Origin: a virus
Taxonomy: Duplodnaviria; Heunggongvirae; Uroviricota; Caudoviricetes
Direction: 5' to 3' (one strand)
DNA: 48,953 bases
IMG/VR virus record: IMGVR_UViG_2579778802_000015
The notes below the pieces were generated by a model. That model was not told where the DNA came from, ran no database searches, and saw only the letters and a program-made list of their open reading frames with translations. Below, in pieces: positions 1-48,953 of the stretch. The position numbers and the translations under genes are program-made. Each line of letters starts with the position of its first letter. Within the stretch, counting starts at the first letter, position 1.

Positions 1-1233
1 TTCATATATCCCTGATGAAAATAAGCCTTCGCCGTCAGCATAGACAGAGGACACGCCAAAAACATAAGAACCAACCGCATATTTCCCGGTGGAAACATTG
101 CCGTCCCTTCCGGCAACCCCCTGTGGGCCTGCCGGGCCAGCTGGTCCCTGCGGACCTGCAGGTCCTGTATCACCTTTTTGACCCCGGGGTCCGGCCGGGC
201 CTGCATCACCTTTGGGACCAGCTGCACCAGCCGGTCCCCGTGGGCCTGCGGGCCCCACTGCACCAGGTGCGCCAGGTTCCCCCCTGTCCCCCTTCGGTCC
301 GGGGACTGCTGCCCGGGTTGCTGCCTCTTCTGCCTTCGTTTTTGCTGCCTGCACTTCTGCCATTACCGCTTTCACAGCCTTTGGGGTTGCCGCTTTTGTT
401 TCATCATCGCTGTTGGTATCGCTGCTCAGCTGTACAACACCTTTCTGTAATGTGCTGGCATCCGGAACACTGGCGACACTGCCTGCGGGACCCGCAGGAC
501 CTGCAGGGCCGGTTTCTCCCCGAGGGCCTGCGGGACCTGCCGGACCTGTTGCGCCGGGTTCACCTTTATCCCCTTTCGGGCCGGTTTGCCCTGCCGGACC
601 CTGTGGTCCGGGTGGTCCGGCCTCTCCACGTGGGCCGGTGTCACCTTTCGGCCCCGGCGGTCCGCCCGGGTCACCTTTATCGCCCTTCGGTCCCTGTGGA
701 CCTGTTTCTCCCCGTTCTCCCTTTGGCCCCGGCTCACCTTTTGGTCCGACCGCCCCCGTTGCCCCGGCTGGTCCCTGTGCCCCTGTGGCACCCTGTGGAC
801 CTGTGTCCCCCTTCTCGCCCGCCGGTCCCCGGGCATTCTCTGCCCGTTTCTTCGCTTCCTCTGCACTCGCCGCCGACGCTTCAGCACGCTTCAGGATTTC
901 CGCTGCCACCGCTTCCAGCTCTGCAAGCGCTTTCGGGTAATACTGCGCCTCATCCTGTTCCATCAGAAATTTATTCAGCGTTCCCGGCTCAGAATCCGCC
1001 TTCACCAGAATGTCACCCACATATGACGGGGCGTACCCTTCCGTGTTCAGCGTCACCCGGTACCACCCCGGCTCCACATCAAAACTGTAACTGCCGGTTT
1101 CCCCCGGCTGCCCCTGCGCCACCGTGGTGACTATCACTGTCTCTGTGGTGCGTCGCGCTTTCAGCTCTATGGTGCATCCCGGCACCGGCTTCCCGGTGCC
1201 GTCCTTCAGCACGCCCGATATTCTGACTGTCAT
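1..1233 (-). CDS. stf: Side tail fibre protein, N-terminal part; gene runs off the window start
   Basis: Minus-strand frame from ATG at 1233 (SD GGGAGA upstream) reads [28 protein letters not shown]..., then long collagen-like Gly-X-Y tracts. No stop before position 1, so it is absent from the ORF track. Confidence 0.8.
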
Positions 1234-1244
1234 AGATTTCTCCC

Positions 1245-1277
1245 ATAAAAAAAGCCCGCAGCAGTGACGCCACGGGC
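1245..1277 (-). terminator. Intrinsic terminator downstream of lom
   Basis: Minus-strand GC hairpin (GCCCG...CGGGC) followed by TTTTTTTAT, directly before the stf ribosome-binding site. Confidence 0.55.
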
Positions 1278-1383
1278 TTCAGGACAGTGTAACTTTACGT
1301 TTCCTCAAACGCAGTTCATCACATGAGGCGGATGAACCTGCGAATTATAACAATGTTTGCAGAAGATAAATCGTCATATACTC

Positions 1384-1983
1384 TCAGAACCGGTATCCGG
1401 TGCCGACAATAAACGCATCCGTACGCCAGTCACCACGTCCTGAGGCTTCATAAGCCAGGTCGACCACGATATTTTCTGTCGGGTTAATCTGCACGCCTGC
1501 ACTGTATGTCAGTGCGGTATGGCTGCGGCGTCCGCTGTCCGAACGGGTCAGGTGCTCCTGCTTTTTACCCTCATCTGACGTGAGGGTCACATAATCACCG
1601 GCAAAAGACGACACCCGGGCATACGACACTCCGGCCAGCGCATAAGCGCTGAACCATTCATTCACGCGCACAGATGGCCCCGCCATCACGCTGAACCAGC
1701 GGTTACGCACAGAATCCTCATGCCAGCGGGTATCGTTGTAGTGCGTTTTTTGCTCACCTTCAGCATTGGCATAACTGAATGACGTAATCAGCCCCAGCGT
1801 GTCCGTAAATTCATAACGGTATTTCACGTTAATCCCGTTCAGATCATCACTACCGGTAGTGTTCGTCAGGGCATGAAGATACCCCGCACTCAGCGTGGCC
1901 TGCTGCTCAGACGCCCATGCAGGCGCACCGGATACGGCCAGACAGATGGCTGCGGACAAAATGGCTGCACAAACTTTACGCAT
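1384..1983 (-). CDS. lom: Lom/Ail-family outer membrane beta-barrel protein
   Basis: 199 aa with signal peptide and C-terminal ...GTGYRF beta-barrel ending; located after J as in lambda. Confidence 0.9.
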   Translation of the reverse strand: MRKVCAAILSAAICLAVSGAPAWASEQQATLSAGYLHALTNTTGSDDLNGINVKYRYEFTDTLGLITSFSYANAEGEQKTHYNDTRWHEDSVRNRWFSVMAGPSVRVNEWFSAYALAGVSYARVSSFAGDYVTLTSDEGKKQEHLTRSDSGRRSHTALTYSAGVQINPTENIVVDLAYEASGRGDWRTDAFIVGTGYRF

Positions 1984-2050
1984 AATTACCTCTCGCTTTT
2001 CTGCAATAAAAAAGGCACCATTTCTGGCGCCCGTATCTGGGTTATAAAAT

Positions 2051-46551: not shown

Positions 46552-47225
46552 CACCGGACATTATCCTGCAACGTACAGGGATCGACGTGAGAGCTGTCGA
46601 ACAGGGGGATGATGCGTGGCACAAATTACGGCTCGGCGTCATCACCGCTTCAGAAGTTCACAACGTGATAGCAAAACCCCGCTCAGGAAAGAAATGGCCT
46701 GACATGAAAATGTCCTACTTCCACACCCTGCTGGCTGAGGTTTGCACCGGTGTGGCTCCGGAAGTTAACGCTAAAGCGCTGGCCTGGGGAAAACAGTACG
46801 AGAACGACGCCAGAGCCCTCTTTGAGTTCACTTCCGGCGTGAATGTTACTGAATCCCCGATCATCTATCGCGACGAAAGTATGCGCACCGCTTGCTCTCC
46901 CGATGGTTTATGCAGTGACGGCAACGGCCTTGAACTGAAATGCCCGTTTACCTCCCGGGATTTCATGAAATTCCGGCTCGGTGGTTTCGAGGCCATAAAG
47001 TCGGCTTACATGGCCCAGGTGCAGTACAGCATGTGGGTGACACGAAAAGATGCCTGGTACTTTGCCAACTATGACCCGCGTATGAAGCGTGAAGGACTGC
47101 ATTATGTCGTGGTCGAACGGGATGAAAAATACATGGCTGGTTTTGACGAAATGGTGCCAGAGTTCATCGAAAAAATGGACGAGGCACTGGCTGAAATTGG
47201 TTTTGTATTTGGGGAGCAATGGTGA
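46548..47225 (+). CDS. exo: Exo (Red-alpha) 5'-3' exonuclease
   Basis: 225 aa; [44 protein letters not shown]... near-identical to lambda Exo as recalled. Confidence 0.97.
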
Positions 47226-47276
47226 TAGCCAGTAGCAACGAGGTGCAAATGATATGACAATTAAGGAATACTACCG

Positions 47277-47528
47277 GTGTTCGTTCTAATCCAGCGCGGG
47301 CAGTCTTTCGTCGATGCCAACAACTATCCGGTTGAAGTCTGCAAAATCACTCTGACGCAGGTAATCTTCCGCAGGCTGGATGGGAGAACCAGAGCCGCTT
47401 CAATTAGCGCATTTAATGCAGAATTTGAGCGAATCGATCACAACGAACTACACATGATTAAAGCAGAAATTGAGAAGGAAAAGCATATTGCCAGCCTTCG
47501 AAAAATGCGCCGCATATCAATCAACTGA
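47277..47528 (+). CDS. Hypothetical protein (83 aa) between exo and xis
   Basis: ORF in the pL operon orientation; no recognised motif. Confidence 0.4.
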   Translation: MFVLIQRGQSFVDANNYPVEVCKITLTQVIFRRLDGRTRAASISAFNAEFERIDHNELHMIKAEIEKEKHIASLRKMRRISIN

Positions 47529-47562
47529 CAACCGCCTTCGGGCGGTTTTTAATGGCGAAAAT

Positions 47563-47934
47563 ATGGATTCACACAGTATCACCCTCAAAGAGGCCTGTAA
47601 GTTTCTCAAGATATCAAGGCCAACAGCTGTTAACTGGATACGAACGGGCCGACTACAGGCAACCCGAAAAAATTCTTCCGGTAAAAGATCACCTTATCTC
47701 ACAACCCGGCAAGCCTGCATTGCAGCACTTCATTCACCGCTGCATACTGTCCAGGTGAGCGCGGGTGATGGCATAACAGAGGAAAGAAAATGTCACTCTT
47801 CCGCAGAGGTGAAATATGGTACGCCTCGTACTCGCTCCCGGGCGGGAAGCGAATTAAGGAGTCTCTTGGCACAAAGGACAAGCGGCAAGCTCAGGAGTTG
47901 CACGACAAGCGAAAAGCAGAACTCTGGCGAGTAG
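47563..47934 (+). CDS. xis: Excisionase (AlpA/Xis-family HTH), unusually long with 145-bp overlap on int
   Basis: [36 protein letters not shown]... HTH; frame stays open to 47934. Confidence 0.6.
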
Positions 47935-48953
47935 ACAGACTGGGGGATATGCCAGATGTCACTTTCGAAGAAGCCTGCCTGAGATGGCTTGAGGAAAAAG
48001 CCGACAAGAAATCCATCGATTCCGATAAATCCAGAATCGCATTCTGGATTGAGCATTTCGAGGGAATAAGGATTAAGGATATATCGGAGGCAATGATCTA
48101 CTCAGTTATCAGCAAAGCGTATAACCGAAAAACAAAGGAGAGATGGAAGTTGCAGGTGGAGGCTGCATTAAGAAAAGGGAAAGAACCACCAGCCTATATA
48201 CCTAAATCGGTGAGCACGCAAACAAAAGCAACACACCTGGCAATGATCAAGGCTATTCTGCGCGCCGCAGAGCGAGACTGGAAATGGCTTGAAAAAGCAC
48301 CTGTAATCAAAATCCCTGCCGTAAAAAACAAACGCGTGAGATGGCTGGAAAAAGAAGAAGCTAGGAGACTCATTGATTCATGTTCTGATCCCCTGAAATC
48401 TGTAGTTAAATTTGCACTGGCAACTGGCCTGAGGAGATCAAACATTATTAATCTGGAGTGGCAACAAATCGATATGCAGCGACGTGTTGCCTGGGTAAAC
48501 CCTGAAGACAGTAAGTCAAACCGCGCTATTGGGGTCGCACTGAATGACACTGCCTGCAAGGTGTTGCGTGATCAAATAGGCAAACATCACCGCTGGGTGT
48601 TTGTTTATACCACTGCTGCCAGAAGGCCTGACGGGACAATGACACCAAGCATCAGAAAGATGCGCCTGGACTATAACACATCGTGGTTAACAGCATGTCG
48701 TCGGGCAGGAATTGAAAATTTCCGTTTTCATGACCTCCGCCATACCTGGGCCAGTTGGTTAATTCAGTCAGGTGTACCACTGTCAGTACTTCAGGAAATG
48801 GGCGGCTGGGAGTCTATCGAAATGGTGCGTAGGTACGCACACCTTGCACCTAATCATTTGACAGAGCACGCGAGGAAAATTGACGACATATTGGGTGACG
48901 ATGTCCCAAATTTGTCCCACCCTGAGGTTTTTGAGGATGCAAAGAAAGCATAA
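47790..48953 (+). CDS. int: Tyrosine integrase (site-specific recombinase)
   Basis: 387 aa; C-terminal catalytic ...[42 protein letters not shown]... R-H-R-Y pattern; stop TAA at the window end. Confidence 0.93.

Follow-up and report, generated by a model that had tools for sequence, protein, structure and literature searches.

Background

Lambdoid phages exchange modules by recombination in the conserved sequences that flank them, under a selection that keeps interacting partners together; this is the established model of their evolution. Among phages of this kind, the Shiga toxin (Stx) phages have been described as highly mosaic and as possessing a lysis cassette made of a signal-anchor-release (SAR) endolysin and a pinholin (PMC8136144). 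Here we analyse a stretch of 48,953 nucleotides, IMG/VR record IMGVR_UViG_2579778802_000015, called the window below. We read it as about 49 kb of an stx-negative E. coli lambdoid prophage made of recombined modules, integrated almost certainly at ynfG, whose tail-fibre end was lost at a contig boundary, and we give this reading a probability of roughly 0.9. The patchwork is real and its seams can be mapped to the base, yet it is ordinary lambdoid evolution, a new combination of known modules.

The closest described systems each resemble the window in part. HK97 has the same combination of lambda immunity with 933W-type N and nut sites, colinear and at 94-96% nucleotide identity (cI 99.6%, Cro 95.5% and N 97.6% at the amino acid level), related tail-shaft proteins (44-75% amino acid identity) and the same head and packaging Pfam families. 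It differs in recombination (Erf), replication and lysis genes, in Q and int and in the content of the rex slot, and the tail tip of the window is nearer to that of lambda. With 933W the window shares N, nutL and nutR, cII (78% amino acid identity), pR'/qut/tR', Q, R, Rz, nanS-p and gam-bet-exo, whereas 933W is set apart by an immunity of its own, which includes stk, by lambda-type O and P, by tRNAs with stx2AB, by a podovirus virion and by a different integrase. Lambda is similar in cI, Cro and the six operators, in the Red genes (about 92% nucleotide identity), in the tail-tip proteins L, K, I and J (67-87% amino acid identity) and in gene order; the N/nut, cII, O/P, Q, S, R, head, rexAB-slot, int and att of the window are not those of lambda.

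Two sorts of E. coli prophage come closer still. The ynfG prophage of strain UPEC-245U has the same series int-Red-RecE(N)-kilR-N-immunity-replication-nin-Q-nanS-S, down to a Q/DnaD_N cassette and a DUF1828 cargo pair that are treated below. The PPompW-type or Sakai-like siphoviral prophages (21437 at ompW, PPompW, vB_EcoS-783R2 and Stx1a/Stx2c-converting siphophages) match it at 94-96% over about 20 kb from TerS to J. They have the same protease-capsid fusion, the same arrangement of the portal with a 407-residue protein and the same HNH gene adjoining TerS, and are unlike it in early region, Q, integrase, integration site, distal J, lom and stf.

Similarity to classic phages and to E. coli prophages

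By exact-protein matches the window corresponds to record positions 3-48955 of the draft contig JJLI01000134.1 (142 kb) of assembly GCA_000627135.1. The open reading frame (ORF) map and similarity searches identify it as a lambdoid prophage in reverse orientation:

1-21475, minus strand: tail and head genes
22820-37468, minus strand: lysis, nanS-p, Q, nin and replication genes
37607-38621, both strands: divergent cI/cro pair
from the pL operon to 48953, plus strand: pL operon through to the integrase, int ending exactly at 48953

The ORF map, annotation transfer and operator positions give the lambdoid order int-recombination-N-cI-cro-cII-replication-nin-Q-lysis-head-tail, with pL and pR diverging around the repressor. 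No tRNA genes were found in the window. An earlier note on this DNA, made from the letters alone, spoke of a prophage, and a lambdoid prophage it is, but a partial one: the left edge of the window is the contig end and falls inside the side tail-fibre gene.

The same note proposed module-level mosaicism, to be checked by blastn against four classic phages, and the proposal was borne out. In a local blastn search lambda, HK97, 933W and phage 21 jointly touch 39.8% of the window, only 10% of it at 90% identity or more, and 60% has no match to any of them. The high-identity islands are cro-cI (37593-38621, 96%) and oL/pL (39973-40260, 89%) for lambda, and for 933W nutL-N (40229-40853, 98.9%; 95.7% to HK97), pR'/qut/tR' (28201-28501, 95.7%) and Rz (92%). 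A further island, gam-bet-exo (45485-47226), is about 92% identical to three of the four phages. Weaker matches are found for Q, R, S and nanS-p (71-81% to 933W) and for the tail tip (77-78% to lambda and phage 21). No blastn match to the four phages was obtained for int, for the head and replication genes, for the rex slot or for most of the pL operon. No single phage matches the window colinearly, and colinearity with any one phage record or complete E. coli genome extends over no more than about 55% of it, the best covering 54.8%; the joints are sharp at the level of bases. With six E. coli prophages taken together, on the other hand, coverage at 90% identity or more rises to 100%. For each segment the closest relatives are E. 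coli prophages at 96-100% identity, while similarity to the classic phages is mostly 65-92%.

One might suppose lambda, 933W, phage 21 and HK97, or phages immediately related to them, to have been the direct donors of the prophage. The N/nutL, pR' and cI-cro islands speak for such donors, as does the pinholin S, 91.5% identical in amino acids to S21. Yet so small a part of the window is close to any of the four, so much of it matches none, E. coli prophages match every segment better, and the lambda-immunity/933W-N arrangement already exists in HK97, that we consider direct descent from these phages highly improbable.

Of the joints that the note had named, those at about 40230 and between cro and cII proved exact, and the one placed around 55-bp repeats is no seam among close relatives. 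Joints that it had not named lie in J (about 2500), between tape measure and L (about 7917), in R (23850-24002), at the two ends of the Q/pR' cassette (28180-29640) and of the cargo slot (38622-39979), at the N stop (40853), between RecE-N and gam (about 45142-45485) and at the exo stop (47226).

The ynfG backbone

From 22830 to 48953 the window aligns as one high-scoring segment pair, 26,142 nt long at 98.1% identity, to the ynfG prophage of UPEC-245U/190328 (NZ_CP049845.1). The family to which this prophage belongs includes those of G8 and O104:H4 HUSEC2011 as well as the induced phage PhiR5_2 (PV340546); its members other than the UPEC-245U prophage match parts of the backbone at 94-99%. 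The integrase is common to them all:

47790-48953, plus strand: tyrosine integrase, ynfG-site type

The Int protein is identical at 386 of 387 positions to the integrases of UPEC-245U, G8, HUSEC2011 and PhiR5_2. The three chromosomal prophages (UPEC-245U, G8, HUSEC2011) adjoin a truncated ynfG, and all contigs with the exact Int have the locus ynfG-ynfH-dmsD-clcB. Judged by these relatives, the prophage was almost certainly integrated at ynfG in its source as well.

The backbone from int to lysis, about 24000-48953, is a widespread prophage family that normally carries a 933W-type podovirus module and in some cases stx1. All four members examined (UPEC-245U, G8, HUSEC2011, PhiR5_2) have the podovirus late module, with its terminase, portal and N4-gp56-type capsid, whereas the window has a siphovirus block from R leftward. 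The early half is also 93.9% identical, over 44% of the window, to the Shigella Stx1 phage 75/02, and over the 14 kb nearest int both 75/02 Stx and POCJ13 are about 94% identical to it. These two are Stx1-converting as judged from their names; the window is without stx.

A crossover within the endolysin gene

The change from backbone to siphovirus block takes place in the lysis cassette (22820-24533):

22820-23287, minus strand: Rz/Rz1, with Rz1 embedded in Rz
23780-24313, minus strand: SAR-type endolysin R
24318-24533, minus strand: S21-type pinholin S

The earlier note had assigned the lysis genes to phage 21. This holds for the holin S (71 residues, Pfam PF04971). R and Rz are of the 933W type: R is 91.0% identical to the R protein of 933W as against 32.8% to R21, with which it shares a Pfam family (PF00959), and Rz is 88% identical to that of 933W. 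Since R has a SAR-like N-terminus, the cassette is predicted to work like the pinholin/SAR-endolysin pair of phage 21, though R is not a phage-21 gene.

Informative sites that distinguish late-type relatives from the ynfG type place the switch inside R, at 23850-24002. They are late-type up to 23849, ynfG-type (UPEC-245U prophage 1) from 23859 to 23909, late-type again from 23912 to 23975 and ynfG-type from 24002 on. In this crossover analysis the window is 100% identical to two siphoviral relatives (L043 and L049) over 22000-23849; from 24002 on, it matches the ynfG type at 100% as well. The switch lies in a zone of about 1.4 kb, covering Rz and R (22830-24286), that is common to both phage types. 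We had earlier placed the crossover in Rz, at 22850-23050, with strain 21437 as the late parent; closer late relatives, found through the exact Rz protein, moved it into R and that placement was dropped.

A crossover in shared sequence of a draft genome raises the question of an assembly chimera, in which a short-read assembler would have joined two resident prophages through their common Rz-R sequence. The contig does stop in a repetitive tail-fibre gene, the zone that holds the crossover is common to several prophage types, and other assemblies break nearby (one, L046, ends about 740 bp past Rz). However, a contig of a sister assembly (JJLQ01000047.1, GCA_000627315.1) spans 22082-33287 at 99.7% and joins the same early side to late-type sequence, so the R junction is not peculiar to one assembly. 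The alternation of late and prophage 1 patches in R is typical of heteroduplex repair and unlike a simple jump of the assembler, and the zone common to the two parental types does not constitute an exact repeat. We therefore think that a chimera can hardly be the explanation, and take the junction in R as a genuine crossover.

We also considered a double crossover that would have replaced a podoviral block, an idea suggested by the 97.4% match of positions 1-702 to the podoviral tail fibre of UPEC-245U. It was rejected because the same 702 positions are 100% identical to the stf gene of a siphoviral prophage of that strain.

The siphovirus block

Leftward of R, positions 1048-23290 are about 96% identical to the ompW-type siphoviral prophages 21437, PPompW and vB_EcoS-783R2. 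The head and packaging genes come first:

14134-22131, minus strand: HNH endonuclease (21766-22131), TerS, TerL, protease-capsid fusion, 73-residue ORF, portal, repeat protein, gp6-like connector
17253-19190, minus strand: S78 protease-HK97-fold capsid fusion, 645 residues (PF04586, PF05065)
15677-17041, minus strand: portal, 454 residues (PF04860)
14457-15680, minus strand: repeat protein, 407 residues

TerL is of the Terminase_1 type (PF03354/PF20441) and the HNH gene, a weak match to PF01844, adjoins TerS. The gp6-like connector, a head completion protein and a gp10-like protein belong to Pfam families as well. An HK97-like head, which the earlier note had proposed, can be retained at the level of Pfam families (S78, Phage_capsid, Phage_portal). 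The resemblance does not go further: the head proteins are 23-29% identical to those of HK97, there is no nucleotide match, and blastp of the capsid domain against HK97 found none. Moreover, HK97 has separate protease (gp4) and capsid (gp5) genes in the order portal-protease-capsid, whereas here the two are fused and placed upstream of the portal, between TerL and portal, an arrangement common to all PPompW/Sakai-type relatives examined. The head block as a whole is about 96% identical to the 21437/PPompW type.

The idea of a portal pseudogene was rejected. The split into 454 and 407 residues, against a single ORF of 861 residues in 21437, corresponds to a homopolymer of five rather than six G at about 15705; since 7 of 8 loci have five G, the two-ORF form is the usual one and is no evidence of decay. 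The two ORFs overlap by 4 nt, and the 407-residue protein has 3.4 tandem repeats of 162 bp (54 residues). PHROGs contains both the fused 861-residue portal and fragment families.

The tail has two parts with different affinities:

8232-14123, minus strand: HK97-type shaft, with tape measure, T, G, major tail protein, gp17-like terminator, gp10-like protein and head-closure protein (44-75% amino acid and 65-72% nucleotide identity to HK97; Pfam)
5868-8239, minus strand: lambda-type tail tip I, K, L and M (67%, 87%, 78% and 45% amino acid identity to lambda, as against 33-36% to HK97)
2051-5524, minus strand: host-specificity gene J (68% amino acid identity to lambda; Pfam)
1384-1983, minus strand: lom (41% amino acid identity to lambda; Pfam)
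1-1233, minus strand: side tail-fibre gene stf, without a stop at the contig end

Shaft and tip meet at about 7917-8239, and nucleotide similarity to lambda, phage 21 and the second prophage of UPEC-245U (UPEC-P2) ends at 7917. The tail had been called lambda-like. For the tip (M-L-K-I-J, 45-87% to lambda) this is correct; the connector, tube and tape measure are of the HK97 type.

Another joint lies inside J at about 2500, where informative sites are UPEC-P2-type below and 21437-type beyond. Positions 1-2500, which contain stf, lom and the C-terminal 150 or so codons of J, are 100% identical to that second, lambda-headed prophage of UPEC-245U and constitute a separately exchanged host-range module. 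The translated stf has a lambda Stf-type N-terminus and collagen-like Gly-X-Y repeats and is 99.9-100% identical to its counterpart in UPEC-245U prophage 2. The collagen-like repeats also give rise to a spurious plus-strand ORF of 371 residues (15-1130), antisense to the true, minus-strand gene.

In a comparison with L010 (3041-3739) and L011, distal stf (1-702) is 97-100% identical both to the siphoviral stf of UPEC-245U and to a 933W-type podoviral tail fibre of the same strain, and in both UPEC-245U prophages this part is followed by DUF4376 and YadA-C-domain genes. The distal collagen-like fibre is a receptor-binding module that crosses virion types.

No nucleotide match to the structural genes of 933W was found in the window other than the collagen-like fibre at 278-694 (67% to the 933W tail-fibre gene). 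By its predicted proteins the window does not belong to a 933W-like podovirus (Sepvirinae); its head would be of the HK97 family and its tail lambda/HK97 siphoviral.

Immunity, N and the rex slot

The region around the repressor can be set out as follows:

37607-40219, both strands: lambda-specificity immunity cassette (cro, operators, cI, cargo, operators)
37172-37468, minus strand: cII, 933W-type (77.6% amino acid identity to 933W, 26.5% to lambda)
37554-37599, minus strand: nutR (46 of 46 bases as in 933W)
37607-37807, minus strand: cro (Cro 97.0% identical to lambda)
37834-37897: oR1-3 (oR2 and oR3 exact, oR1 with one mismatch to lambda)
37908-38621, plus strand: cI (98.7% amino acid identity to lambda)
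38668-39210, plus strand: rexAB-slot cargo, 180 residues, weakly DUF6978-like
39198-39974, plus strand: rexAB-slot cargo, 258 residues, DUF1828, overlapping the former
40159-40219: oL3-1 (all three exact matches to lambda)
40238-40304, plus strand: nutL (65 of 67 bases as in 933W)
40470-40853, plus strand: N (99.2% amino acid identity to 933W N)

From cI, Cro and the six operators we predict the specificity of the lambda immunity group (imm-lambda), as the earlier note had recognized. It was equally right in combining this immunity with a 933W-type N: N is accompanied by the nutL and nutR of 933W, and lambda nut sites are absent from the window.

Its two joints here can be placed to within a few bases. 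Past pL, similarity to lambda ends at 40260 and to 933W begins at 40229, and identity to a sibling prophage, L022, returns at 40227; on the cro/cII side, similarity to lambda ends at 37593 and to L022 at 37614. This sibling has flanks 99.6-100% identical to those of the window and carries in between a 933W-type cI, DUF3024 and stk, diverging exactly at 37614 and 40227, of which the former is 8 bp from the cro stop and the latter 18 bp from oL1. Two siblings with a P22-Cro-like immunity (L023 and L030) have a larger swap that takes in N and both nut sites, bounded by 37490 and 41435. In three with lambda immunity (L021, G8 and PhiR5_2) the difference is confined to the cargo slot, from 38621 to 39980. 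Since HK97 has the same lambda-immunity/933W-N arrangement, the pL/N and cro/nutR seams must be old ones that have been reused.

The cargo pair in the rexAB slot matches PADLOC PDC-M24A (E 3.8e-4, residues 98-160) and PDC-M24B (E 5e-7, residues 5-169), weakly and partially, in the right order. For the DUF1828 pair and PDC-M24 no match was found in NCBIfam, in a PDB sequence search or in the literature searched. The same slot holds the known exclusion genes RexAB in lambda and Stk in 933W, and a KilA-N/BstA_C protein in siblings. A cargo pair 51% identical to this one follows an unrelated repressor in the phage-21-like ev207, and in Burkholderia phage phi644-2 a distant pair is found close to the immunity region. 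Possibly the two genes form an uncharacterised anti-phage exclusion system expressed in the lysogen, a suggestion that we offer as doubtful.

Late control and the stx slot

Between the nin region and the lysis genes are the late regulator, its target and the place where Stx phages have their toxin genes:

29289-29669, minus strand: Q (Pfam PF06530; about 81% nucleotide identity to 933W Q)
28561-29154, minus strand: DnaD_N-domain gene, 197 residues, between Q and pR'
28465-28492, minus strand: pR' (26 of 28 bases as in 933W)
28410-28451, minus strand: tR'/qut (40 of 42 bases as in 933W)
27950-28141 and 27466-27674, minus strand: two STnc100-family small RNA (sRNA) genes (Rfam 145 and 130 bits, respectively, against a gathering score of 47)
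25261-27234, minus strand: nanS-p, sialate O-acetylesterase (DUF1737, SASA, DUF6645)

The unit Q-DnaD_N-pR'-qut-tR' has been swapped as a whole relative to PhiR5_2 and G8, with bounds at 28179 and 29640; UPEC-245U has it at 99.7% identity, and 16 complete genomes contain it. Q is not that of lambda, as had been stated. A truncated Q, suggested by the end of 933W similarity 61 nt before the end of 933W Q, was rejected: the Pfam Q profile is covered from 1 to 118 of 118, and the additional 795 bp are the DnaD_N gene. The predicted product of that gene has a Cys-rich, basic C-terminal tail, and the insert is found in 16 complete E. coli genomes, Shiga toxin-producing strains among them; in 933W and HUSEC2011 no more than about 40 bp stand in its place. 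The two antitermination circuits, N/nut and Q/qut, appear to be present with their cognate sites.

There is no tblastn match to stx in the window (best E-value 3.1). At 28170-28201, within about 30 bp, similarity passes from 933W position 20957, at the second terminator that follows pR', directly to position 22748, immediately beyond stxB, so the cassette of tRNAs and stxAB is precisely absent. The description of the prophage as an stx-negative relative of Stx phages is accordingly apt, considering the 933W-type pR'/qut/tR' and the similarity of the early half to 75/02. The predicted nanS-p cargo is also in place; the gene is 71-80% identical in nucleotides to p42 of 933W and about 98% to UPEC-245U prophage 1.

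The claim that could not be upheld is that of an alternative cargo in place of stx: the slot is empty but for the two STnc100-family sRNA genes. They sit on a 482-bp direct duplication (repeat families D8 and D10) between tR' and nanS-p. The pair occupies the exact place of the tRNAs and stx2AB of 933W. sRNAs of the STnc100/PasD family have been described beside the esterase gene in Stx-type prophages (bioRxiv 10.64898/2026.05.13.724894), and they are therefore no new cargo. In a 2026 preprint, copies of the related sRNAs PasA and PasD were reported not to be tandem duplicates, which makes the tandem pair seen here slightly unusual.

The pL operon

Beyond N, a Rac-like block precedes the Red genes:

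40857-42139, plus strand: pL-operon genes of unknown function
42596-45467, plus strand: Rac-like block with kilR (42596-42817), a 128-residue ORF and a RecE N-terminal homologue (43395-45467)
45464-47225, plus strand: gam, bet and exo (about 92% nucleotide identity to lambda, 933W and phage 21)
47277-47528, plus strand: DUF4222 gene

KilR is 90% identical to the KilR of Rac. The RecE-like ORF of 690 residues aligns to Rac RecE over residues 50-555 only, at 54%, and to positions 1-618 of 883 of phrog_607; it is without the exonuclease domain, and its last 90 or so residues are unrelated to Rac RecE. It is followed directly by gam, with a 4-nt overlap and no recT between them. A Rac RecET system, as far as the coding sequence tells, would not be present. 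The same RecE-like ORF is conserved, with identical sequence, in many ynfG prophages beside a complete lambda Red.

The Rac-like block meets lambda Red at about 45142-45485, and further similarity joints coincide with the N stop and the exo stop. Lambda-type Red genes had been claimed, and gam-bet-exo are indeed found in operon order. Compared with the proteins of lambda, 933W and phage 21, Gam is 86% identical (to 933W), Bet 94% and Exo 97-99%; the Pfam families are Gam, RecT and YqaJ.

How the hybrid may have arisen

The steps that we propose are as follows. A crossover inside R would have joined the ynfG backbone to a siphovirus morphogenesis block. That block would itself be layered: a distant HK97-family head with HNH, TerS and TerL, a shaft of the HK97 type, a tip of the lambda type and an exchanged host-range module (C-terminus of J, lom, stf). 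Into the backbone, cassettes would have been inserted: the immunity genes oL-cI-oR-cro between 933W-type nutL/N and nutR/cII, the cargo pair of the rexAB slot, Q with its own pR'/qut/tR', and a Rac-type kilR-recE(N) block abutting lambda Red. The joints may have formed by homologous recombination in short conserved sequences flanking non-homologous modules, with occasional illegitimate joins at gene boundaries. Selection would then retain only sets in which partners stay together: N/nut, Q/qut, cI/Cro/operators, pinholin/SAR endolysin, HNH/terminase.

Siblings differ from the window by exactly these cassettes, at switch points resolved to the base. Every swapped unit is, by sequence, functionally closed: cI and Cro with six operators, N with nut, Q with pR'/qut, the pinholin with the SAR endolysin, HNH with TerS/TerL, and the C-terminus of J with lom and stf. 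We infer the order and direction of the exchanges from these comparisons.

Where the main exchange took place is a further question. The hybrid could have arisen in situ, between two prophages of one chromosome (for instance the ynfG prophage and a siphoviral one, of the ompW type or another), perhaps with an inversion or deletion, and hence might be a fixed, non-inducible remnant; otherwise the partners would have been co-replicating phage genomes. Intrachromosomal partners are abundant, since the late half is matched in E. coli genomes at 4 places in the median and at 25 in the extreme case; the nearest donors of 1-2500 and of 24000-48953 are both prophages of UPEC-245U; and the left flank lies outside the available sequence. 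Against a remnant, the essential late and early genes are intact, cognate pairs are kept, the two-ORF portal is a common allele, and the window contains no sign of decay. The site of an exchange cannot be inferred from sequence alone. We regard an origin in situ as unlikely, though worth bearing in mind, and the prophage as presumably functional.

Our reading of the window as part of a recombined ynfG prophage has several points to its disadvantage. The left end of the prophage and both attachment (att) sites are outside the window, which means that how complete it is, and where it was integrated in the source strain, can be judged from relatives only. When the exact Exo, RecE-N, Int and Rz proteins were looked up, no locus of JJLI01000134.1 reaching past int was returned; it is for this reason that the ynfG site is taken from relatives. 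The parents used in the crossover analysis are present-day relatives and not the true ancestors, and the switch, having moved from about 23000 to 23850-24002, could shift again. Finally, from about 2500 to 22000 no relative exceeds about 96-97% over the full length.

As a clean worked example of lambdoid modular evolution, with seams that fall where interacting parts stay together, the prophage has little import beyond bookkeeping. Nonetheless, it illustrates that a single ynfG backbone is found in nature combined with virion genes of either the podovirus or the siphovirus type, with at least three different immunity cassettes, with several cargos in the rex slot and with two Q cassettes. An stx-negative prophage can share N, Q/pR' and the lysis region with Stx phages and yet differ in virion type, and hence typing and taxonomy of Stx phages by gene content or markers can mislead. 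An intact 933W-type pR'/tR' beside a vacant stx slot identifies the lineage as one from the gene pool of the Shigella Stx1 phages.

Replication genes, repeats and the nin region

The remaining genes lie between cII and Q:

33840-37157, minus strand: non-lambda replication module with DUF977, DUF1627, a DnaC/IstB-like ATPase, a 362-residue O-like protein and a 72-residue ORF (annotation, Pfam)
29662-33807, both strands: nin and accessory region with NinH, RusA, YbcO, NinE and NinB (gene calls, Pfam, Rfam)
33133-33807, plus strand: DUF4145 gene, a weak match to PADLOC PD-T7-4 (E 0.0026)
32207-32834, plus strand: Gp49/HTH (HigB/HigA-like) toxin-antitoxin-like pair
32051-32128, minus strand: isrK (Rfam, 75 bits)
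31941-32025, minus strand: C4 antisense RNA (Rfam, 74 bits)
31185-31886, minus strand: ORF6N/P22_AR_C antirepressor-like gene (Pfam)

The replication module gave no blastn match to the O/P genes of lambda or 933W. The "55-bp repeats" are three copies of about 60 bp. Two of them (36952-37011 and 37043-37101) are in tandem, 98% identical to each other, in the 72-residue ORF between cII and the O-like gene; the third (36171-36256) is inside the O-like gene. Similarity to the cII of 933W, HK97 and phage 21 ends at the cII stop (37172-37188), 70 bp from the repeats. In close relatives whose immunity is of another type, cII stays together with the 72-residue ORF and the O-like gene, and similarity is continuous across the region; only the copy number differs, G8 being short of one copy. 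The repeats are variable in copy number and near a module edge, and are no recombination seam among near relatives.

In the nin region, positions 29798-30508 are 88% identical in nucleotides to HK97. The Gp49/HTH pair and the DUF4145 gene are probably accessory genes expressed in the lysogen. Their strand is opposite to that of the replication and nin genes around them. The isrK and C4 RNAs stand directly upstream of the antirepressor-like gene, an arrangement reminiscent of the immI region of P1/P7 or of IsrK in Gifsy-1, which would amount to a secondary control module in a prophage of lambda immunity.

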